The position numbers were made by a program, and so were the translations under genes. Positions 7,712-31,300 of a DNA stretch of 64,000 bases are shown here, one piece after another (positions within the stretch are counted from its first letter, which is position 1; each line of letters begins with the position of its first letter). The stretch lies in the NCBI GenBank assembly GCA_000004985.1, contig GG738923.1, one strand, 5' to 3'. Under the pieces are notes generated by a model. It searched no databases. It was not told the origin of the DNA and was given only the letters and a program-made list of their open reading frames with translations. The stretch comes from Naegleria gruberi (Eukaryota).

Positions 7712-8404
7712 ATGAAAGCAAAAAAGAAAAATCTCGTGCTCCAAGGACAAGAAATATTTTCATCTGATGTTTGTTTTGAAATAATTTCCATAATTGATGA
7801 TTCGTGGTTTATTTTGAAGAATTGTTCCTTGATTTCAAAACAATTCTTTAATGTGATCAAGGAACGTTCAAAACTTTTTATCGAATTTAAAACAAAATTT
7901 ACAGAGACAAGAATTGAATTATTCATGAAAAGTCAATTTATGAACAGTATTGTTAATGTTAAATTTTCTAAAATGTTGTTTGACTCTATAGAAAAAGCCA
8001 AATTTATAACTGAAATGAAACAATTAACATTACTTGATATTGGTGGAAATCAAATTGGTGATGAAGGTATCAAACCAATAAGTAAAATGAAACAATTGAC
8101 ATCACTTTATGTTTACAATAATCAAATTGGCGTGGCAGGAGCCAAATATATTGGTGAAATGAAACAATTAACATCACTTACTATTAGTGGAAATTACATT
8201 GGTGATACAGGAGCCAAATTTATAAGTGAAATGAAACAATTAACATCACTTAATACATGCTACAATGAAATTGGTGTAGAAGGAGCCAAATCAATAAGTG
8301 AAATGAAACAATTAACATCACTTGAAATTGGTGGAAATCGAGTTGGTGATGAAGGAGCCAAATTTTTAATTGAAATGAAACGATTAAAATCACTTGATAT
8401 TTAG
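7712..8404 (+). CDS. F-box-like / leucine-rich repeat (RNI-type) protein.
   Basis: N-terminus FSSDVCFEIISIIDDSWFILKNCSLISKQFF is F-box-like. It is followed by five tandem 28-aa repeats (EMKQLTSLxIxGNxIGDEGAKxIS) typical of ribonuclease-inhibitor-type LRRs. It is a paralog of 31438..32349. Confidence 0.65.
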   Translation: MKAKKKNLVLQGQEIFSSDVCFEIISIIDDSWFILKNCSLISKQFFNVIKERSKLFIEFKTKFTETRIELFMKSQFMNSIVNVKFSKMLFDSIEKAKFITEMKQLTLLDIGGNQIGDEGIKPISKMKQLTSLYVYNNQIGVAGAKYIGEMKQLTSLTISGNYIGDTGAKFISEMKQLTSLNTCYNEIGVEGAKSISEMKQLTSLEIGGNRVGDEGAKFLIEMKRLKSLDI

Positions 8405-8735: not shown

Positions 8736-8823
8736 TCCGATGAGACGGAATCGAACCGCCGACCACAGGATTACAGTTTTTCTTGCTACAGTCCCATGCT
8801 CTACCAGCTGAGCTATCATCGGT
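8736..8823 (-). tRNA. tRNA-Tyr (anticodon GUA) with an intron of about 14 nt.
   Basis: Reverse complement: CCGATGATAGCTCAGCTGGTAGAGCATGGGACTGTAG[caagaaaaactgta]ATCCTGTGGTCGGCGGTTCGATTCCGTCTCATCGGA. The acceptor stem CCGATGA/TCATCGG is perfect, the anticodon loop is CTGTAGA after intron removal, and the T-loop is GGTTCGATTCC. The intron lies 3' of anticodon position 37, as in eukaryotic tRNA-Tyr. Confidence 0.8.
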
Positions 8824-9013: not shown

Positions 9014-11108
9014 TTATTTCTTATTTGGTTGTTTGTTAGTTGATTGTAAAATTAAAGCATTTTCATCTTCTAAAACCTTTTCAGATTTTGATTGTTTAAC
9101 AGTAATTGTTGAATTATTTAAAATCAATGCCACGTGTTCACCATTATTTGTTAAATTTACAATAAATGATTTAACCATTGGATCAATTAATGGAATGTGA
9201 ATTCTCAAATCAATACAATGGAATGGATCATCAGTCAAATTACATCTTTTAACTTTTGGAATTGAACCACGAATGACACCACTTTGTGAACTTGTCATTG
9301 ATTCTGTCATTTGATGAGCTAACATGTCATTAATCCAAACTCTGAATGGTTCATCTTCACTTGCAGGAATAGCAGCATAATGAAGATAAATTCTACTCAT
9401 TTGATCATTCTTATCACCTAATTGATTAGTATCAAATGAATCATTATGTTGTTGTTTGATTCTAATATTATTTCTATTTCCTTCTTGAGTAATTAGAATT
9501 TGAATGAATTTACCATGTTGAGAGAGATTGAAATTTTGTTGAGTATAAATATTTGCTTCAGGCATATCAATTAATAGAGAAACAATGCAATCTTCTCTTG
9601 GTAGTTTTGGAAAAGTACCTCTGACAATAACTGTTTTACCAGATGGAGTTGAATCCTCTCTCTGATACATGACTGTTTTACCTTCATAAAGTAATTTAAA
9701 TGGTTTCTCAGGTGTTGCCTTAATATTGGAAATGTAAATTGCCAAATCCATAGTTTCACCAAATTCACCTTGTTGTTTCTTCTTATTTTCAATAATTTTA
9801 GAAGGTGCTTGATCTTTCTTTAATCCCATAACTTGTCTCTTCTTTTCATCATATTCTTCTTGTTCTAAAATACCTTGTTCTAATAGAGAATCTAATTTAC
9901 TCAATTGATCTCTTTGTTGAGGTGTTAATTTTAATTTCAATCCTGAATCGTCATCATCATCATCATCATCTTCATCTCCATATTCATCTTCATCTTCATC
10001 ATCATCTGGTAATAATTGTCTCTTCTTTGCTTTATATTCTTCATCTGTTAAAATTCCTGCATCAAGTAAATCTTGAAGTTTTTGTAATTGTTCTTCAACT
10101 GTTGCAGTAGAATTGGATTTCTTTGAAGATTTCTTAACAGTTGTTGTTGTAACCATAGATTCAGATGGTCTCTTTCTTTCTTCTTCCAATTTTTTACGTT
10201 GTTGTCTCAATAGAGTTTCCTTCTTTGAAATTACTTCATCCTCTGATAAAATTTCAGATTCAACTAAATTGGCCAATTTTTCCAATTGTTGAATTTGATC
10301 TGGTGTTAATAAATCTCTTTCTTCAGGTGTTAAATTTAATTTATAACCAGAGGAGGAATTAGAAGAAACAGCAGCAGTAGTAGTAGTAGATGGTTTCTTT
10401 GAAATGGTTGTACTAGCTCCTACTCTCTTTGATGATGAAATAATTGGTTGGTCATCTGAATCATCATCTTCATCTTCAGTTGTAGAATCTTGAAGAATTT
10501 TCTTTCCAATTGCAGATTTCAATGCTGATAATTCTCTATCACTATTACTTTCATCACCACCACTTACAATAACAGCTTCATCACTACTATTATCACTACT
10601 GTTAGATGAATATTTGTTTGATGTTCTATTGTTACTACTACCACCACTACTAGTAGTAGTGTTGTTGACTTGTTTGTTAATAATTGGTCGATTATTGACA
10701 ATTCTATTAGATGATGATTTAATAATTGGTTCATCATCAGAATCATCATCTGTTGATTCGGCAACAATATGTTTACGTTGTTGACTTGATGTTGATGATG
10801 TTGTTGTTGTTGTTGGTTTGGTTGTTGTTGTTGTTGATTGAGATGGTGTAGATTTTTGACTAACAATTGGTATTTCTTCTTCTTCATCTTCTTCTTCAAA
10901 GGAACCTCCCGATAAAATCTTTTTCTTTTCCTCCTCTATTAGAGTTTAGTTTTAAGTTTCGTAAGTGATGATAATACTTACCAAAATCTTCAGGATCCAT
11001 CAAACCTTGGTCAAGGAATGATTGAAGAATTTGAATTTGTTCTCTTTGCTCATCAGTAATGTTAACCATCTTGTTTTTTTTTTGATTTAAATTAATTTCG
11101 TCATTCAC
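9014..11108 (-). CDS. Protein with four SHOCT-like motifs, acidic linkers and an unknown 300-aa C-terminal domain. Two exons: 10982..11108 and 9014..10935; intron 10936..10981.
   Basis: Exon 1 (MNDEINLNQKKNKMVNITDEQREQIQILQSFLDQGLMDPEDF) ends at GTAAGT. The intron (46 nt) ends AATAG. Exon 2 is open in phase through the ORF 9014..10522. The spliced product is 682 aa. Four motifs fit the SHOCT consensus L..L.e.GiIteeE(Y/F)..kKrqLL: LQSFLDQGLMDPEDF|EEEKKKIL (split by the intron), LEKLANLVESEILSEDEVISKKETLL, LQDLLDAGILTDEEYKAKKRQLL and LDSLLEQGILEQEEYDEKKRQVM. Confidence 0.65.
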
Positions 11109-11340: not shown

Positions 11341-12735
11341 TTAAGAAATGTGTTGTTGAACAATGTGTTGATGATTATTAAAACCAATGCCACATTGATC
11401 ATCACCAATGAGACTCTTAATTGGTGGTAAAATCAAACCTTCTGAGGCAATTGGAGTGGCAATGGTGGTGCTTGATGAATTACTTGATGGTAAATTATTA
11501 AAACCATTAGTTGTTGTTCTACTATTGAAATTTCTATAATCACCAAGTGAAGGAATACGTTTCTTCAATGGTTGAGCATGATAATTCATAAAATTGGTTG
11601 AATGAAGAGATGAAATTGGTGGAAGAATTCTTGGAGAGGAAAACTTCTTATCAGAGGAAGCAAATTGGAATAACATTGAGGCAGCAGCTATTTCATCACC
11701 AAAATCTTGACTTTGATTTGAGGTTTGAGATTGTTCATTATAGAGACGGTGGTGATGAGTAGTAGTGTTATTACCAATGATGGAACTACTTGTTGGATGA
11801 GAATAATTATTACTCATATCAGAGAAGGAAATGTTAGAAGTGTTGAGGTGATCAATGGTTGATTCCTTATGTCCTACAACAACAATTGGTTCTTGTTCGT
11901 CATCATTTTCTTCTTCAGCAATAGGTTCCTCTTCTTCGGATGGAATGTACTCATCTTCTTCAACATCTTCTTCAGCAACAACAGTTTGTTCAATAGGCTT
12001 GCTGGAGATTTGTTGAGGAATGAAGGCTGCACTACTTGTTGAGGCAAAACCAATTCTCGAAGATGGAGAAGTTTGGATGACAACTTGTTCTTCACTGGCA
12101 GCCTCTTGTTGGTACTCAACAACCTTTCTCTTCTTACTGTGTTGGGAGGTGAGGGTAGGAGTAGAAGCAGAAACAATCTTTCTGGCTGATCTGGTTACTG
12201 GTTCTCTAATAACTTCTTCCTCTGATTCATATGAATCTTCTTCTTCCTCTGCAGATACTTCTTCTTCCTCTTCGTGGGTTCTCTTGTTCATTCCCTTCTT
12301 CTTTGGTGTAACGGTTCTAATGTATGGCCATCTGTTTTCATAACCAAGGCTGTAGAACTTTCTCTTTAAAGTTGAGACAGAAACACCAAGCTAATTTGAT
12401 AGCAATAATGGTGAGAGGATAATGTTATCCAGCGTATGATGATGACATTATTCATCATAATAAATAATTATTATTTAATTTCATAATAATTAATATATGG
12501 AATAATTAACGTTCAGAGAGAAGACAAAAACGGTTAATAACGTGTTAATTCAAAATAATGATGACAAGTTAATACAAACCTTCTTTGCAGCTTGCGATTG
12601 AGTATAAACAAAGTATTCTCTAATTGTTTCATAGGTAAGAGTGTCGAGCTTGCGATGTCTTCCCTTCTTCTTTAGACTTTTGGAAGAAGAATTGTCCAAA
12701 TAATAACTTGGATCTTCGTAGGTTAATGCGCTCAT
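11341..12735 (-). CDS. RWP-RK domain protein (putative transcription factor). Two exons: 12580..12735 and 11341..12390; intron 12391..12579.
   Basis: Exon 1 (MSALTYEDPSYYLDNSSSKSLKKKGRHRKLDTLTYETIREYFVYTQSQAAKK) joins phase-0 to LGVSVSTLKRKFYSLGYENRWPYIRTV... This reconstitutes the RWP-RK consensus (ls.e.l.kyF.l.i..AAk.LGVs.T.LKr.cR..Gi.RWP.RK). The donor is GTTTGT and the acceptor ATTAG. It is followed by an acidic (EEEEE) and Ser/Thr-rich C-terminus (ORF 11341..12291). Confidence 0.7.
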
Positions 12736-17524: not shown

Positions 17525-18494
17525 TTGATAGATCACGATAAAGATAATAGAATAGAAATGACAAAGATTGAATATCCAAATTTGATGGAGGACTCTATTG
17601 TTTATAATATTCAATATTTTATGGGAAAGGATTATGTGTATTTAGTGGACAAAAAAAATGGGACTGTTGGATCTTTTTCTCTCAATTCAGGCCAATTGTT
17701 AGTTAACTATTATTCAGATCATAGAGGAATCAGAAAGTTTATCACTGGACCTGTTTCTTCTTGTCATGTCGTGCTGACCTATGATGGAACTATTTTTGAG
17801 AATGGAAAGGAGGTTGTTTTTTTTTCAACTGATCCACAACCGAATATTTTGAGAGCTGCATGTTGTGGAAGAGGATCAATTCTGGCTTCTTCTCATGATC
17901 TTTATGCAAGAGGAGATGATAATGTATTCTTTGCGTTTTCAGAAAAGTTTGGAGACTACAATCACAATGTTTCAGCAACAAAGTTTGTACATATTGCTAA
18001 ATTTGAACACGAAATTAGAGATATCCAATGTGGATACTTTTTTTCTGTAGTTCTTTTGCATAATAATGAATTATTGGCATGTGGCTATAATGGCTTGAAT
18101 CAATCCTCTTGGGATTCTTCCTATGGTGAGATTAAACAATTTACCAAAATTCAATACTCGTTCGGTTATATTGAGAGATTTGGCTGTTCTTCAAGAGGTA
18201 CTTGGGTTGTTAGTGGTGAGTATTTTGATGTTCTTTTTCTTATCTTTTTAAGGTGATGAGGTTACAATGGTAGGAGAGGTTGTTGAACTTTTTACAACCT
18301 TAGTTTCAAATACAGGAGTTCCAAAAATCATAAAGTTTCATCTGGAGGACTTTGATTGTGATACATTGATGAATTGTGGATGGCACTACGTGATGTACAA
18401 CCAAAACCCAAAGAAGAGTAACTATTTCAAAGAAAGACTTCATACCATGGTTGAATTGGAACTAATTACTGACCTTGGTTTCATTTGCCAATAA
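17525..18494 (+). CDS. RCC1-like (beta-propeller repeat) protein. Two exons: 17525..18215 and 18253..18494; intron 18216..18252.
   Basis: Blade-like motifs ILASSHDLYARGDDN, VVLLHNNELLACGYNGLNQSS and RGTWVVSG. GTGAGT donor and TTTAAG acceptor (37-nt intron) join in phase to GDEVTMVGEVVELF...GFICQ*. Paralogous to 32519..33862. Confidence 0.55.
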
Positions 18495-18886
18495 GGCAAC
18501 TGGAGGAAATACATTGAAGGAATCGGTTTATTCCTTAAGCACAGCATGTGTCTCTGCCAAGTTTTTAACTTGAGGAAAACTAAGGAAGTCTGGAATTTCA
18601 ATGCACTTAAAAATAGTTTCTTAACAAAACAGAATATTTGTTGAAAAGTCTGTCGCTGGTAAGAGTGAGTTTATTCAAGAATTGGAAGATCAATTTGATT
18701 CTCAAACTCATTTGACTAAGTATAACTGATGCATAACTGTTAAAAGATCCATAGGGTGAGTCAACTAATTGCCAAATGATGATTTGAAGATTAACAAATT
18801 TTAAAATTAAGGTATGAGCAATCGATCTCTTATGCACCAATTTGTTTATTAAGGCGAATTAAGGAATGATATTTATCTTTATGTAA

Positions 18887-18957
18887 TCGGGCGTGGTATA
18901 GTGGTAGCATTCCAGACTGTCACTCTGGCGACCCGGGTTCAATTCCCGGCGTTCGAG
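18887..18957 (+). tRNA. tRNA-Asp (anticodon GUC), copy 1.
   Basis: TCGGGCGTGGTATAGTGGTAGCATTCCAGACTGTCACTCTGGCGACCCGGGTTCAATTCCCGGCGTTCGAG. Acceptor stem with 2 G-U pairs, Asp-type GUAU D-stem, anticodon stem CCAGA/TCTGG with loop CTGTCAC, and T-arm CCGGG-TTCAATT-CCCGG. Confidence 0.75.
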
Positions 18958-19318
18958 TTCAATTTTATGTAGTTTTTGAAAATTTATCTTGGAGTTTTGT
19001 ATCGAAGTTTGGACATCATTTTTCTATTTTAAATATGTGTGAAAAATGTCACGAAGCATGTTTGAAACTTTTGTAGTGAGAATATGGAGAGAGTGGATAC
19101 AATATCATTCATAGAAAGCCTAATGTGTTGTTTAGGTGGTATTGTTGTGTTCTATTAATAATAATTGAAATTAAGGTATGTACCATTTGTTTGTATTGAT
19201 TTAAATTTATTGAGTTATTAGTGTTGATATATAGTTATAGTAAACAATTAAGAAAACTTGAAAGATTCAGATCAGAATTGTAACACTTGTTAGTGATTGA
19301 GTTTCTTAGTAAAAAAAA

Positions 19319-20563
19319 ATGCGAAACAATAAAGAGGGGAAAGTTAGATTTTTTCTTTGTGATTTTAAACTTCCTTCCAGTGATGATAATTCCACTCAAA
19401 TATTAAATTGGTTAAAAATCAAATTTGGCCAATTAAAATTTTCATCATTTAATTGTTCATCAATAAGAGATTTTAAATTTTGTTCCGATAATTTATTGGA
19501 AAGAATTGATAGGATGGGATTTGAAAAACCATCCTATGTGCATAGGCAGTGTATTTTTCCAATGATTCGTTCTCATGAGAGTCAAGATTATTTATTCGAA
19601 AATTGTGGTGAAGGAACAGATCGGATTGTTTCGTATGTGATTGGAATTATTGAAAGAAGATATCGAATGAGGAATGAAAAGAATGGAACGACCATTGTGA
19701 TTGGAAATGGATGGCAATGGGCATATACTGTTAGATATTTGTTAAAATCTTTAGGAGGAGATGATTTGAAAGTTTGTTTGTGTTTGGAAGGATTCAGGGC
19801 AAGTACTTTTCAAGGAAATGAGGATGTGATTGTTGGAATTTGTAACAATGTGAACAATCTTGTCAATTCTGGGTCTCTAAAAGCAAAGGATGTAAATTTA
19901 TTGATTATTGATCAAGCTAATCATTTGATTTTTGATTTAGATTGTGGTTTACATATACTGATGTGGAATTTTAATTGTAAAGTTTGTTGGTTTTGTCTAA
20001 CTGATTGTCTGAAGGAAAATCCTCTGAGAGATCCCATCAAGATTCAAATATTGAAAGATGGAACAGATTATCCTGATCTGAGAGCTTCTTACTCTAAGAA
20101 TTTTTACATTGATGTAGAAATTGAAGACTACAAATACGAAACTATCAGTGATTTATTCGATATTTTGGATGGTCTTCGAGCAGTAGTGTACTGTGAATCA
20201 GATGAGAAAGCTAAGGCAATTTGTGAAAAATTGCAAGATCGGTTTCTTGTAGCATGTTTACACAGAGGCCTTGGAGAAACACAAATTGAGGAAATTAGAC
20301 AAGATTTTAATTGGGCAAAGGTTAGATTTTTATTTACAACAGATCATTTCTCTAAACTTGAATATCATCCAGTCTTGGTGATAAACTATGATTTACCATG
20401 GCAAAATGAAAAGTATGCACTTCGACAAATCACATCAAGGTTTAGAAATACAGCAACTATCAGCTTGATACGACACGAAGACGTTATTAAGATTAGAGAA
20501 ATTGAGAAATTTTATTTCATTGAAATTCAAGAATGTCCGTATGCCATTCTCGATTACCTTTGA
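19319..20563 (+). CDS. eIF4A-like DEAD-box helicase paralog with degenerate catalytic motifs (putative pseudo-helicase).
   Basis: 414-aa ORF colinear with eIF4A. RMGFEKPSYVHRQCIFPMIRSHESQDYLFENCGEGTDR corresponds to GFEKPSAIQQRAI...AQSGTGKT, with the Q-motif kept and the Walker A GKT lost. LIIDQANHL corresponds to VLDEADEML (DEAD lost). VLVINYDLPWQNEKYALRQITSRFRN corresponds to LVINYDLP.N.E.YIHRIGRGGR (motif VI lost). Domain 2 core (AVVYCESDEKAKAICEKL...FLFTTDHFSK) is retained. Confidence 0.75.
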   Translation: MRNNKEGKVRFFLCDFKLPSSDDNSTQILNWLKIKFGQLKFSSFNCSSIRDFKFCSDNLLERIDRMGFEKPSYVHRQCIFPMIRSHESQDYLFENCGEGTDRIVSYVIGIIERRYRMRNEKNGTTIVIGNGWQWAYTVRYLLKSLGGDDLKVCLCLEGFRASTFQGNEDVIVGICNNVNNLVNSGSLKAKDVNLLIIDQANHLIFDLDCGLHILMWNFNCKVCWFCLTDCLKENPLRDPIKIQILKDGTDYPDLRASYSKNFYIDVEIEDYKYETISDLFDILDGLRAVVYCESDEKAKAICEKLQDRFLVACLHRGLGETQIEEIRQDFNWAKVRFLFTTDHFSKLEYHPVLVINYDLPWQNEKYALRQITSRFRNTATISLIRHEDVIKIREIEKFYFIEIQECPYAILDYL

Positions 20564-23411: not shown

Positions 23412-24767
23412 TTATTCAATGGAGGTCTTGAAATTATAAATGTGATTGAATTTGACTTCTAATAAGCTTAGTTCTTTGATTGCGTTTTGGATCAATGAAT
23501 CAATGAGTTGAGTTTTTTCATTGGATTTCTTCTTGCATAGTTTCTTATGAGCTGATTTTGCTTCCTCTAAACATTGAATTCTATCCTTGAGAGCTCTTGG
23601 TATCCTTTCTTGCTTAATATACGAATGGGCACGATCATTTCTATCATTAATGATGGATTGAACATCTGAAAGCTTGAATAATTCTCTGAATTTCCTAACT
23701 CTGGAATTTTCGTCATCCACCATTTTGTCTTCGCATGCTAATACTGACCTAATACAATCGGTGAATATCTTATTGATGTGATTGTATTGATCCTCGATTG
23801 AAATCTTTTGTTTCTCTAAGCAAAGGGTACTTTTAAATGCTTCGAATCTTCCAAGACAAGTAATAAGCTGTTTACACAAATCAAAATTACCAGAATCAAA
23901 CAGTTTAAAGAATACCTTAATAATATCAATATCTCCTTTCAGAATTGCTTTAGCAACAAGGAGAGTGGCTGCATTCTCGGAGGGTGGGGCTGATTTCTCC
24001 CTGTGTTTCAGTACAATCCCATTCACAGTTACAGGATCCTCCATGGTAATGGTTGAAATCAAGCGAATCATCAAATCATCGTCGTTACAAATATGAGGAA
24101 TTATTTCTTTACATTTGAAAGTATTATTTTCCAATGCGGCAACCAAGTCCAGTTCTGTAAAATTAGTAGTTGATTGATCTGGTTGTTGAATCTCCTTATC
24201 AGCTGCCCATGCTGTCTCTTTTGTATCTTTTACATGTGGTTTTGTTGTTGTGCGTTTCTTCTCCTTTCCAATAGGCTTTGGGGCTGTAGTGGAACTCAAA
24301 TTAGCAACCACAGTTTTCACTACTGTAGTATTTGATGAAGAAGCAGATTGATTCGAAACTGGTAAAGGTATTCTTGCAAGTACAGTTTTGACTTGGTCAA
24401 CAATATTTGTATTTGGAATATCTTCGACAAGGTTGACAAATTCTCCAATACTATATTTGAAACCTTGATGACCGTGTAATTTCTTCTTTTCATAAGAAAT
24501 ATCAACATCATAATAGAATTTCTGTTCAAAAACATGATACAAATCAACTCTTTCATCAAACTCCCAACAATGAGAATAAAGTAATTTACACCAACTCTTC
24601 AAACATGTTCTCTTCACCCACATTCTTTCCAAGTCTGTCGATCTTTCAACATGATATTCAAGCAGCCTCTCACTCCTATCCACTTCACAATTTCCTCTGT
24701 AAATATAATGATATTTGTGATCATCTAAATAGACTCTTGCACCCAAGTTATCTGGATAAAATATCCN
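23412..24767 (-). CDS. Copy 1 of the unknown 517-aa protein gene; 5' end runs into N-gap 24768..24816 (partial).
   Basis: ORF 23412..24746 corresponds to residues about 74-517 of the complete copy. It has a one-residue indel (KRTTTKPHV vs KRTTKPHV). Confidence 0.5.
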   Translation of the reverse strand, partial: XIFYPDNLGARVYLDDHKYHYIYRGNCEVDRSERLLEYHVERSTDLERMWVKRTCLKSWCKLLYSHCWEFDERVDLYHVFEQKFYYDVDISYEKKKLHGHQGFKYSIGEFVNLVEDIPNTNIVDQVKTVLARIPLPVSNQSASSSNTTVVKTVVANLSSTTAPKPIGKEKKRTTTKPHVKDTKETAWAADKEIQQPDQSTTNFTELDLVAALENNTFKCKEIIPHICNDDDLMIRLISTITMEDPVTVNGIVLKHREKSAPPSENAATLLVAKAILKGDIDIIKVFFKLFDSGNFDLCKQLITCLGRFEAFKSTLCLEKQKISIEDQYNHINKIFTDCIRSVLACEDKMVDDENSRVRKFRELFKLSDVQSIINDRNDRAHSYIKQERIPRALKDRIQCLEEAKSAHKKLCKKKSNEKTQLIDSLIQNAIKELSLLEVKFNHIYNFKTSIE

Positions 24768-25218
24768 NNNNNNNNNNNNNNNNNNNNNNNNNNNNNNNNN
24801 NNNNNNNNNNNNNNNNTTGCCAATAAGGCAACTGGAGGAAATACATTGAAGGAATCGGTTTATTCCTTAAGCACAGCATGTGTCTCTGCCAAGTTTTTAA
24901 CTTGAGGAAAACTAAGGAAGTCTGGAATTTCAATGCACTTAAAAATAGTTTCTTAACAAAACAGAATATTTGTTGAAAAGTCTGTCGCTGGTAAGAGTGA
25001 GTTTATTCAAGAATTGGAAGATCAATTTGATTCTCAAACTCATTTGACTAAGTATAACTGATGCATAACTGTTAAAAGATCCATAGGGTGAGTCAACTAA
25101 TTGCCAAATGATGATTTGAAGATTAACAAATTTTAAAATTAAGGTATGAGCAATCGATCTCTTATGCACCAATTTGTTTATTAAGGCGAATTAAGGAATG
25201 ATATTTATCTTTATGTAA

Positions 25219-25289
25219 TCGGGCGTGGTATAGTGGTAGCATTCCAGACTGTCACTCTGGCGACCCGGGTTCAATTCCCGGCGTTCGAG
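25219..25289 (+). tRNA. tRNA-Asp (anticodon GUC), copy 2 (identical, in duplication unit 2).
   Basis: Same 71-nt sequence 6332 bp downstream of copy 1. Confidence 0.75.
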
Positions 25290-25650
25290 TTCAATTTTAT
25301 GTAGTTTTTGAAAATTTATCTTGGAGTTTTGTATCGAAGTTTGGACATCATTTTTCTATTTTAAATATGTGTGAAAAATGTCACGAAGCATGTTTGAAAC
25401 TTTTGTAGTGAGAATATGGAGAGAGTGGATACAATATCATTCATAGAAAGCCTAATGTGTTGTTTAGGTGGTATTGTTGTGTTCTATTAATAATAATTGA
25501 AATTAAGGTATGTACCATTTGTTTGTATTGATTTAAATTTATTGAGTTATTAGTGTTGATATATAGTTATAGTAAACAATTAAGAAAACTTGAAAGATTC
25601 AGATCAGAATTGTAACACTTGTTAGTGATTGAGTTTCTTAGTAAAAAAAA

Positions 25651-25914
25651 ATGCGAAACAATAAAGAGGGGAAAGTTAGATTTTTTCTTTGTGATTTTAA
25701 ACTTCCTTCCAGTGATGATAATTCCACTCAAATATTAAATTGGTTAAAAATCAAATTTGGCCAATTAAAATTTTCATCATTTAATTGTTCATCAATAAGA
25801 GATTTTAAATTTTGTTCCGATAATTTATTGGAAAGAATTGATAGGATGGGATTTGAAAAACCATCCTATGTGCATAGGCAGTGTATTTTTCCAATGATTC
25901 GTTCTCATGAGAGT
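25651..25914 (+). CDS. Second copy of the eIF4A-like degenerate helicase gene, 5' part only (truncated by N-gap 25915..27305).
   Basis: Identical N-terminal 88 codons (MRNNKEGKVRFFLCDFKL...MIRSHES) before the gap. Confidence 0.6.
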
Positions 25915-27305
25915 NNNNNNNNNNNNNNNNNNNNNNNNNNNNNNNNNNNNNNNNNNNNNNNNNNNNNNNNNNNNNNNNNNNNNNNNNNNNNNNNNNNNNN
26001 NNNNNNNNNNNNNNNNNNNNNNNNNNNNNNNNNNNNNNNNNNNNNNNNNNNNNNNNNNNNNNNNNNNNNNNNNNNNNNNNNNNNNNNNNNNNNNNNNNNN
26101 NNNNNNNNNNNNNNNNNNNNNNNNNNNNNNNNNNNNNNNNNNNNNNNNNNNNNNNNNNNNNNNNNNNNNNNNNNNNNNNNNNNNNNNNNNNNNNNNNNNN
26201 NNNNNNNNNNNNNNNNNNNNNNNNNNNNNNNNNNNNNNNNNNNNNNNNNNNNNNNNNNNNNNNNNNNNNNNNNNNNNNNNNNNNNNNNNNNNNNNNNNNN
26301 NNNNNNNNNNNNNNNNNNNNNNNNNNNNNNNNNNNNNNNNNNNNNNNNNNNNNNNNNNNNNNNNNNNNNNNNNNNNNNNNNNNNNNNNNNNNNNNNNNNN
26401 NNNNNNNNNNNNNNNNNNNNNNNNNNNNNNNNNNNNNNNNNNNNNNNNNNNNNNNNNNNNNNNNNNNNNNNNNNNNNNNNNNNNNNNNNNNNNNNNNNNN
26501 NNNNNNNNNNNNNNNNNNNNNNNNNNNNNNNNNNNNNNNNNNNNNNNNNNNNNNNNNNNNNNNNNNNNNNNNNNNNNNNNNNNNNNNNNNNNNNNNNNNN
26601 NNNNNNNNNNNNNNNNNNNNNNNNNNNNNNNNNNNNNNNNNNNNNNNNNNNNNNNNNNNNNNNNNNNNNNNNNNNNNNNNNNNNNNNNNNNNNNNNNNNN
26701 NNNNNNNNNNNNNNNNNNNNNNNNNNNNNNNNNNNNNNNNNNNNNNNNNNNNNNNNNNNNNNNNNNNNNNNNNNNNNNNNNNNNNNNNNNNNNNNNNNNN
26801 NNNNNNNNNNNNNNNNNNNNNNNNNNNNNNNNNNNNNNNNNNNNNNNNNNNNNNNNNNNNNNNNNNNNNNNNNNNNNNNNNNNNNNNNNNNNNNNNNNNN
26901 NNNNNNNNNNNNNNNNNNNNNNNNNNNNNNNNNNNNNNNNNNNNNNNNNNNNNNNNNNNNNNNNNNNNNNNNNNNNNNNNNNNNNNNNNNNNNNNNNNNN
27001 NNNNNNNNNNNNNNNNNNNNNNNNNNNNNNNNNNNNNNNNNNNNNNNNNNNNNNNNNNNNNNNNNNNNNNNNNNNNNNNNNNNNNNNNNNNNNNNNNNNN
27101 NNNNNNNNNNNNNNNNNNNNNNNNNNNNNNNNNNNNNNNNNNNNNNNNNNNNNNNNNNNNNNNNNNNNNNNNNNNNNNNNNNNNNNNNNNNNNNNNNNNN
27201 NNNNNNNNNNNNNNNNNNNNNNNNNNNNNNNNNNNNNNNNNNNNNNNNNNNNNNNNNNNNNNNNNNNNNNNNNNNNNNNNNNNNNNNNNNNNNNNNNNNN
27301 NNNNN
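25915..27305. other. Assembly gap (1391 N) inside duplication unit 2. Smaller gaps at 1906..2184 and 24768..24816.
   Basis: Runs of N. The ORFs drawn across them in the six-frame track are artefacts. Confidence 1.
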
Positions 27306-29746: not shown

Positions 29747-31300
29747 TTATTCAATGGAGGTCTTGAAATTATAAATGTGATTGAATTTGACTTCTAATAA
29801 GCTTAGTTCTTTGATTGCGTTTTGGATCAATGAATCAATGAGTTGAGTTTTTTCATTGGATTTCTTCTTGCATAGTTTCTTATGAGCTGATTTTGCTTCC
29901 TCTAAACATTGAATTCTATCCTTGAGAGCTCTTGGTATCCTTTCTTGCTTAATATACGAATGGGCACGATCATTTCTATCATTAATGATGGATTGAACAT
30001 CTGAAAGCTTGAATAATTCTCTGAATTTCCTAACTCTGGAATTTTCGTCATCCACCATTTTGTCTTCGCATGCTAATACTGACCTAATACAATCGGTGAA
30101 TATCTTATTGATGTGATTGTATTGATCCTCGATTGAAATCTTTTGTTTCTCTAAGCAAAGGGTACTTTTAAATGCTTCGAATCTTCCAAGACAAGTAATA
30201 AGCTGTTTACACAAATCAAAATTACCAGAATCAAACAGCTTAAAGAATACCTTAATTATATCAATATCTCCTTTCAGAATTGCTTTAGCAACAAGGAGAG
30301 TGGCTGCATTCTCGGAGGGTGGGGCTGATTTCTCCCTGTGTTTCAGTACAATCCCATTCACAGTTACAGGATCCTCCATGGTAATGGTTGAAATCAAGCG
30401 AATCATCAAATCATCGTCGTTACAAATATGAGGAATTATTTCTTTACATTTGAAAGTATTATTTTCCAATGCGGCAACCAAGTCCAGTTCTGTAAAATTA
30501 GTAGTTGATTGATCTGGTTGTTGAATCTCCTTATCAGCTGCCCATGCTGTCTCTTTCGTATCTTTTACATGTGGTTTTGTAGTGCGTTTCTTCTCCTTTC
30601 CAATAGGCTTTGGGGCTGTAGTGGAACTCAAATTAGCAACCACAGTTTTCACTACTGTAGTATTTGATGAAGAAGCAGATTGATTCGAAACTGGTAAAGG
30701 TATTCTTGCAAGTACAGTTTTGACTTGGTCAACAATATTTGTATTTGGAATATCTTCGACAAGGTTGACAAATTCTCCAATACTATATTTGAAACCTTGA
30801 TGACCGTGTAATTTCTTCTTTTCATAAGAAATATCAACATCATAATAGAATTTCTGTTCAAAAACATGATACAAATCAACTCTTTCATCAAACTCCCAAC
30901 AATGAGAATAAAGTAATTTACACCAACTCTTCAAACATGTTCTCTTCACCCACATTCTTTCCAAGTCTGTCGATCTTTCAACATGATATTCAAGCAGCCT
31001 CTCACTCCTATCCACTTCACAATTTCCTCTGTAAATATAATGATATTTGTGATCATCTAAATAGACTCTTGCACCCAAGTTATCTGGATTAAAATTATCC
31101 GAAATGACTTCATAAACAGATAATAATTGATTCTTGAATGGAAAATCTACTTTGATTTCTCTCGACCATTTTTCAACAACTGAATCTCCCTTGAGCATGT
31201 AAACAATAAAGGCTTTGTTGTAGAGGACATCCATCATGTACTGCTTTTTAGGATCATAATTCGGAATGTGTGTTTGTGCTTCAGAACGGAATTGAGACAT
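29747..31300 (-). CDS. Hypothetical 517-aa protein, no recognisable domain (complete copy). It lies 75 bp upstream of the AAA+ ATPase gene, co-oriented.
   Basis: Single ORF, not low-complexity. The N-terminal half is rich in conserved-looking aromatic/charged residues (RVYLDDHKYHYIYRGNCEVDRSERLLEYHVERSTDLERMWVKRTCLKSWCKLLYSHCWEFDE). The C-terminal half is alpha-helical and Lys/Glu-rich. Confidence 0.6.
   Translation of the reverse strand: MSQFRSEAQTHIPNYDPKKQYMMDVLYNKAFIVYMLKGDSVVEKWSREIKVDFPFKNQLLSVYEVISDNFNPDNLGARVYLDDHKYHYIYRGNCEVDRSERLLEYHVERSTDLERMWVKRTCLKSWCKLLYSHCWEFDERVDLYHVFEQKFYYDVDISYEKKKLHGHQGFKYSIGEFVNLVEDIPNTNIVDQVKTVLARIPLPVSNQSASSSNTTVVKTVVANLSSTTAPKPIGKEKKRTTKPHVKDTKETAWAADKEIQQPDQSTTNFTELDLVAALENNTFKCKEIIPHICNDDDLMIRLISTITMEDPVTVNGIVLKHREKSAPPSENAATLLVAKAILKGDIDIIKVFFKLFDSGNFDLCKQLITCLGRFEAFKSTLCLEKQKISIEDQYNHINKIFTDCIRSVLACEDKMVDDENSRVRKFRELFKLSDVQSIINDRNDRAHSYIKQERIPRALKDRIQCLEEAKSAHKKLCKKKSNEKTQLIDSLIQNAIKELSLLEVKFNHIYNFKTSIE

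Follow-up and report, generated by a model that had tools for sequence, protein, structure and literature searches.

The window analysed here is a 64,000-nucleotide stretch of Naegleria gruberi DNA (GenBank assembly GCA_000004985.1, contig GG738923.1), and its minus strand carries a two-exon gene whose product joins SHOCT motifs to a C-terminal pair of predicted beta-sandwich domains. Exon 1 (10982..11069) begins with an ATG at 11069 and supplies nucleotides 1-88 of the coding sequence, encoding MVNITDEQREQIQILQSFLDQGLMDPEDF together with the first base of codon 30. A spliceosomal intron of 46 nt in phase 1 (10936..10981, GTAAGT...AATAG) separates it from exon 2 (9014..10935; 1922 nt, coding nucleotides 89-2010), which includes the TAA stop at 9014-9016. 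Left unspliced, the frame closes after 57 amino acids (aa); once spliced, the open reading frame (ORF) runs to 669 aa, and over its whole length this product agrees exactly with N. gruberi XP_002669724.1 (EFC36980.1, UniProt D2W1V1). The gene is the annotated NAEGRDRAFT_82045, and both its intron-containing gene model and its SHOCT call were already public, the UniProt entry being entitled "SHOCT domain-containing protein". A literature search for its locus tags and accessions found no publication that mentions them. The first-pass annotation of this DNA, made from the letters alone, had started the protein with MNDE at 11108; the codon there is a GTG that came from a bacterial-style ORF call, and the first ATG is the one at 11069, which opens MVNITDEQ. 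Its 46-nt intron fared better: the coordinates are exact, the splice is needed to reach the long frame, the public gene model agrees and sequence comparison indicates conservation in two other genera. The encoded protein is 75 kDa and acidic (pI 4.8). It has no signal peptide and no transmembrane or hydrophobic segment (the maximum 19-residue Kyte-Doolittle average is 1.08), and by prediction it is a soluble protein of the cell interior.

The SHOCT family is represented in Pfam by a 28-position model (PF09851) with a curated gathering cut-off of 27 bits. Scanned against this model, the whole protein scores 75.9 bits (E 1.5e-21) over four stretches. The first-pass annotation had described four segments following the SHOCT pattern and named a profile search as the check; the score is far from insignificant and confirms the pattern, three of the segments pass unaided, and the remaining one departs from it. 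Motif 1 (10913..11042, minus; aa 10-37) reads EQIQILQSFLDQGLMDPEDF up to the intron and EEEKKKIL after it, the junction falling between Pfam model positions 20 and 21. In its spliced form it scores 28.6 bits alone, and the exon-1 ORF of the unspliced DNA matches only model positions 1-20. Motif 3 (10010..10093, minus; aa 311-338, EQLQKLQDLLDAGILTDEEYKAKKRQLL) reaches 39.2 bits over the complete model (positions 1-28 of 28) and motif 4 (9827..9910, minus; aa 372-399, DQLSKLDSLLEQGILEQEEYDEKKRQVM) 33.0 bits. These three motifs retain the turn glycine, and each individually exceeds the cut-off over 27-28 model positions. Motif 2 (10208..10291, minus; aa 245-272, QQLEKLANLVESEILSEDEVISKKETLL) is divergent: Ser-Glu replaces the turn glycine, Val replaces the aromatic residue, and the second helix continues into a basic stretch, RQQRKKLEEERKR. 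It is recognized only as the fourth stretch of the whole-protein scan, and when scanned alone against Pfam it has no match. Weaker overlapping matches to GvpG, DUF1707 and SHOCT_2 fall within these stretches too and are uninformative.

Could these segments be generic amphipathic helices rich in Glu, Lys and Leu, whose likeness to SHOCT has arisen by chance? They are short and compositionally biased, and the behaviour of motif 2 in isolation leans the same way. Against this stand the three motifs that singly surpass a curated threshold over nearly the full model, and a composition control in which residues were shuffled within each motif. In native order and joined by identical glycine-serine (GS) linkers, the motifs score 87.1 bits against SHOCT; none of nine within-motif shuffles matches it at E<=10. 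Orthologs, moreover, keep the G-[IL]-[ILM] signature of the turn and the pattern E-E-[YF]-x3-K-[KR]. A chance origin is extremely improbable and, by the Pfam scores and the shuffle control, already refuted; judged by their sequences, the motifs are real SHOCT domains, three of them secure and one divergent. One copy lies at the very beginning of the protein and the other three form a cluster at aa 245-399 of the 669, so that the C-terminal placement typical of the family is not the one found here. The exceptions recorded in the founding paper, some of them from N. gruberi, mark that placement as a tendency rather than a rule (PMC3581485). A search of the 64-kb window, using a seed hidden Markov model (HMM) for SHOCT, found no further copies of either SHOCT or the beta-sandwich unit described below.

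A full-length AlphaFold2 (AF2) model was built from four sequences only and has a predicted template modelling score (pTM) of 0.26. It places helix pairs at residues 6-20/26-37, 241-255/261-284, 309-321/327-337 and 368-382/388-398, with predicted local distance difference test (pLDDT) values of 80-93; motif 1 spans this range and motif 2 stands at about 90. All four SHOCT copies, motif 2 included, are thus modelled as helix-turn-helix alpha-hairpins. This agrees with the structure expected of the family, a pair of short amphipathic helices that meet in a tight turn and bear the signature G-[IL]-[IL]-[ST]-x-x-E-[FY], apart from the turn glycine missing in motif 2. The segments between them (aa 40-225, 285-306 and 340-364) are disordered in the model. 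The longest of these linkers (10349..10906, minus; aa 40-225) is an acidic, Ser/Thr-rich region of low complexity, predicted to be disordered (pLDDT <50); the slightly wider stretch at aa 41-245 contains 70 Ser and Thr and 35 Asp and Glu residues and has a pI of 4.4. Linker aa 40-225 is poorly conserved and its length varies between orthologs. Pfam and PDB matches in the linker to the hNIFK FHA-binding motif (E 0.06-0.29), dematin and lectins were dismissed as low-complexity noise. As a separate observation, the same linker (10349-10906) holds short islands conserved among orthologs, EEEEIPIVS, DDDSDDEPIIKSS, EAV[IV]VSGGD and DDSDDQPIISS, in which acidic runs are followed by small hydrophobic cores; they resemble short linear motifs and might be candidates for SUMO-interaction-like patches.

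A full-length search recovered orthologs in Naegleria fowleri (FDP41_007456, 681 aa, 55% identity) and Willaertia magna (ABK040_011078, 611 aa), and a third, an ENA protein of 521 aa, that lacks the N-terminal part. All four aligned sequences conserve motifs 2-4, and motif 1 is kept wherever an N-terminus is present (three sequences); the divergent motif 2 is nearly invariant among orthologs, and the Willaertia protein carries a fifth SHOCT at its C-terminus. In the alignment the C-terminal 240 aa or so are the best-conserved part and the linkers vary in both length and sequence. When the N. fowleri and Willaertia proteins were threaded onto the DNA of their loci, each gene proved to contain a single intron, after coding nucleotide 88, in phase 1 and between ...DF and EEEK..., as in N. 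gruberi. The lengths differ (224 nt in N. fowleri, 93 nt in W. magna and 46 nt in N. gruberi). An intron position shared inside a SHOCT motif argues strongly, at the level of sequence, that the splice is real and old.

This intron also bears on the origin of the gene. Bacteria and archaea make up the overwhelming majority of species with SHOCT (843 of about 880; PMC3581485), and the single plant SHOCT protein was deemed likely to be bacterial contamination (PMC3581485), so that contamination or a recent horizontal transfer might account for a 'prokaryotic' domain in a eukaryotic assembly. Set against this are a spliceosomal intron within motif 1 whose position and phase are conserved across three genera, orthologs 54-58% identical in N. 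fowleri and Willaertia, an AT-rich window of eukaryotic character (31% GC, eukaryotic neighbours and an intron-bearing tRNA), and a fused beta unit that we found in eukaryotic contexts only. The intron position conserved inside the SHOCT motif excludes contamination and recent transfer; both are very unlikely and effectively refuted by these comparisons, and the genes appear to be long-resident eukaryotic ones. Separating horizontal acquisition from convergence had been named as a task by the first-pass annotation; recent acquisition is the part that the conserved intron and the heterolobosean orthologs render very unlikely. An ancient transfer of the SHOCT module itself is possible, and 28 residues are hardly resolvable by phylogeny.

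The region downstream of the SHOCT cluster consists of two related units. Unit 1 (9440..9745, minus; aa 427-528) and its duplicate, unit 2 (9080..9391, minus; aa 545-648), align by BLASTP with E 8e-7 and 23% identity over 104 aa. They share the family motifs NI[KP]A[ST]xxxPF, FNL[ST]xxGxF and KQQxxDxF. A unit HMM scores them at 101 and 86.6 bits, respectively; it was iterated from a seed taken from the NAEGRDRAFT_82045 protein, and its match to the protein's own units is partly circular. An AF2 model of the pair (pLDDT 90.8) shows two eight-stranded sandwiches, unit 1 at pLDDT >90. Sequence and model together identify the C-terminal region as a tandem pair of immunoglobulin (Ig)/prealbumin-like beta-sandwich domains of about 105 aa each, the product of an internal duplication. 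The first-pass annotation had seen here an unknown, novel globular domain of 300 aa: no Pfam model matches it, and it resolves into two units and one duplication. No Pfam model covers the beta unit in the NAEGRDRAFT_82045 protein or in any of the 34 family members described below, and no significant PDB sequence match was obtained, the best results of a profile search being 2mmp (E 0.0085 over 60 aa) and 3hn5 (E 0.13). At the level of fold the pair recalls the extracellular domain of PepT1/PepT2 (PDB 5a9h, 5a9i and 5a9d), with an identity of 7-11% and a template modelling score (TM-score) of 0.25-0.30, the latter being low because the inter-domain geometry differs. In PepT1/PepT2 the domain is an extracellular insertion in a mammalian membrane transporter, whereas the Naegleria protein is predicted to be soluble and intracellular; in the models the resemblance is one of fold and is not evidence of homology. 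Generic fold neighbours are the sole basis for an alternative in which the beta pair is a lipid- or carbohydrate-binding module, like domain 4 of cholesterol-dependent cytolysins, C2 domains or the starch-binding CBM20/41. In that case the beta pair would hold the protein to membranes or glycans and leave the SHOCT array as its free interacting end; we regard this as improbable.

The C-terminal region is not the orphan it had seemed, as about 30 representative relatives exist. An exhaustive HMMER search of 1.84 billion representatives retrieved 32 proteins at E<=1e-3, ten of them at E<=1e-30, and down to E 1e-41 (phmmer). Relatives had escaped a word-indexed homolog search with the C-terminal 268 aa, and one with the domain profile A3 gave just two short metagenome proteins; it took the exhaustive search to reveal the family. 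The relatives that bear names are N. fowleri FDP41_005133, Willaertia ABK040_015809 and Acrasis kona AKO1_011358, all others deriving from metagenomes or unannotated assemblies. The unit HMM recognizes 75 copies in 34 proteins, for the most part in tandem pairs, and 19 of the 34 also carry a Pfam SHOCT. The recurring layout is SHOCT(n)-beta-beta-(SHOCT), and the only other globular partner seen beside the beta units is a C2 domain, in one protein. Two bacterial candidates (P0029 and P0033; leucine-rich repeat or type IX secretion system proteins) were rejected as spurious: they match through short repeated stretches and are not recognized by the unit HMM. Every family member with a name comes from a heterolobosean (Naegleria, Willaertia or Acrasis), and both of the metagenome contigs that we checked are eukaryotic, carrying genes for CFAP77, dynamin, F-box, BTB, TPR/MLP1 and RGS-guanylate cyclase proteins. 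FDP41_007456, FDP41_005133, ABK040_011078, ABK040_015809 and AKO1_011358 all resemble the N. gruberi protein in having the unit of about 105 aa, usually in tandem, along with SHOCT on low-complexity linkers. Copy numbers vary. In the Acrasis protein (1049 aa) and similar ones of about 1050-1070 aa, SHOCTs are far more numerous, a further beta unit stands at the N-terminus and a SHOCT lies at the C-terminus. Short forms of about 230-320 aa contain just the beta pair, in some cases followed by a single C-terminal SHOCT. The heterolobosean SHOCT-beta relatives are all annotated merely as hypothetical or SHOCT-containing proteins. That the unit constitutes a genuinely undescribed domain family, one that has co-evolved with SHOCT in heteroloboseans and allied eukaryotes, is a proposal we make tentatively.

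How does this arrangement compare with what is known of SHOCT? The domain was defined by Eberhardt, Bartholdson, Punta and Bateman (2013, PLoS One 8:e57848; PMC3581485), who recorded it in 19 eukaryotic species, among them trypanosomes, Dictyostelium, oomycetes and N. gruberi. The last of these has its own section in that paper, with 14 SHOCT proteins, two of them with three copies and one (D2VS68) with eight (PMC3581485). N-terminal SHOCTs were documented in the same study, in trypanosome CorA and Tic20 proteins (PMC3581485). D2W1V1 is not listed in the text supplements of PMC3581485, nor is it confirmed as one of the two three-copy proteins. The first-pass annotation had called an N-terminal eukaryotic array unusual; multi-copy and N-terminal SHOCTs have been in print since 2013 (PMC3581485) and UniProt names the protein accordingly, so the SHOCT finding for NAEGRDRAFT_82045 is already known. 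The new element, a modest one, is the beta-sandwich family that has no Pfam model and travels with SHOCT. Like other members of PF09851, the protein contains the 28-residue two-helix hairpin, with three copies above the cut-off and all four modelled as alpha-hairpins. The usual member, however, is a bacterial protein with a single C-terminal copy, whereas here a eukaryotic protein has four, N-terminal and internal, of which one is interrupted by an intron and another lacks the turn glycine. A further parallel is offered by the bacterial SHOCT-like fusions to Toastrack, band-7, PLD-N and other domains (Ravi et al. 2024, mSystems; PMC11237479), in which a bihelical module likewise stands at either end of unrelated globular domains. 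The module is predicted to lie inside the cell, where it would promote assembly on the inner side of the membrane (PMC11237479). The fusions differ in being bacterial, in typically having one or two copies and in belonging to membrane-stress operons; the Naegleria gene stands outside any operon, and the globular partner of its SHOCTs is a beta-sandwich seen in our searches in eukaryotic contexts only.

No biochemical function, be it oligomerization, nucleic-acid binding or membrane anchoring, is established for the SHOCT family. Its description in the first-pass annotation as an oligomerization module reflects a hypothesis: the founding paper proposed oligomerization, then fused a bacterial SHOCT to Cd4d3+4 and found no support for it by size-exclusion chromatography (PMC3581485). 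Membrane anchoring is a prediction, SHOCT-like domains being expected to hold assorted intracellular domains at the inner face of the membrane (PMC11237479). Self-association nevertheless deserves to be weighed for a protein of this design. If SHOCT hairpins bound one another, four per chain could generate homo-oligomers, a cross-linked network or a condensate in which the beta pair would be cargo. In 91 proteins the amphipathic SHOCT helices overlap predicted coiled coils, and the domain is often found alongside oligomeric proteins (PMC3581485); network-forming proteins, for their part, typically combine multivalency with long acidic linkers that are disordered. The sole direct test of the idea, with the bacterial SHOCT-Cd4d3+4 fusion, was nevertheless negative (PMC3581485), and in the single-chain model (pTM 0.26) no contact between SHOCT hairpins is readable. 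We consider self-association unlikely, if somewhat less so than lipid or glycan binding by the beta pair.

Based on these observations, we favour a model in which NAEGRDRAFT_82045 encodes a soluble adaptor or scaffold that is multivalent. A surface for specific binding would be provided by the conserved beta-sandwich pair, whose NIPASxxxPF loop is a candidate site, and the flexibly tethered SHOCT hairpins would supply several low-affinity attachments that act by avidity on a common partner. This partner may be a protein or, in line with predictions for bacterial SHOCT-like domains, the cytoplasmic face of a membrane. The idea of membrane-proximal anchoring comes from work on SHOCT-like domains (PMC11237479), and the family member in which beta units are fused to C2 was counted in favour of the model. 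We hold the descriptive part of this account (architecture, conservation, family and fold) with high confidence; we infer the adaptor mechanism, and it is possible rather than probable. Description and mechanism taken together form the best overall explanation, one that we judge reasonably likely.

Several features around the gene are recorded here as side observations. A tRNA gene with an intron lies at 8736-8822 (minus), about 190 nt downstream of the stop of the SHOCT gene; it matches the full Rfam tRNA model at 54.8 bits and was missed by ARAGORN, which lists just a tRNA-Ile and two tRNA-Asp. By eye, CU-GUA can be read in its anticodon loop, with an insert of about 14 nt after it; this suggests a tRNA-Tyr(GUA) with its usual intron. 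The adjoining ORF at 7712-8404 (plus) encodes leucine-rich repeats built of MKQLTSL...GNxIGDxGAK units, and the locus of the N. fowleri ortholog (L001 1258-2568) also adjoins a leucine-rich repeat gene, in a different relative orientation. Upstream, on the same strand as the SHOCT gene, an ORF at 11341-12291 (minus) encodes an acidic, Ser/Thr-rich protein of 316 aa with no obvious domain. Farther along the window, direct repeats occur at an offset of 6,332 nt (18465-19602 and 24797-25934, 96.5% identical; 24218-24781 and 30550-31113, 92.9%). The first pair holds two tRNA-Asp(GTC) genes, at 18887 and 25219, and the repeats suggest that a segment of some 6.3 kb has been duplicated in tandem and may be present three times, with indels. 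Finally, a 69.5-kDa 'SHOCT domain-containing protein' of N. fowleri, A0A6A5CCE5, is among the most abundant proteins in conditioned medium and extracellular-vesicle cargo (PMC12089049, PMC9312180). Its mass fits neither the ortholog of NAEGRDRAFT_82045 (76.9 kDa) nor the paralog (90.4 kDa), and no link is drawn.

What does the gene contribute to the understanding of SHOCT? The conserved intron within a SHOCT motif points to long-resident eukaryotic genes. The beta unit, recurring with SHOCT in Naegleria, Willaertia, Acrasis and other eukaryotes, is a candidate new domain family for curators. Many SHOCT repeats beside one conserved globular partner make these proteins a reasonable place to seek the SHOCT ligand. 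If our reading is correct, SHOCT(n)-beta-beta proteins would offer the first practicable way to discover the binding partner of SHOCT, since a multivalent array that is eukaryotic and joined to a conserved globular domain lends itself to tagging, pull-down and imaging.
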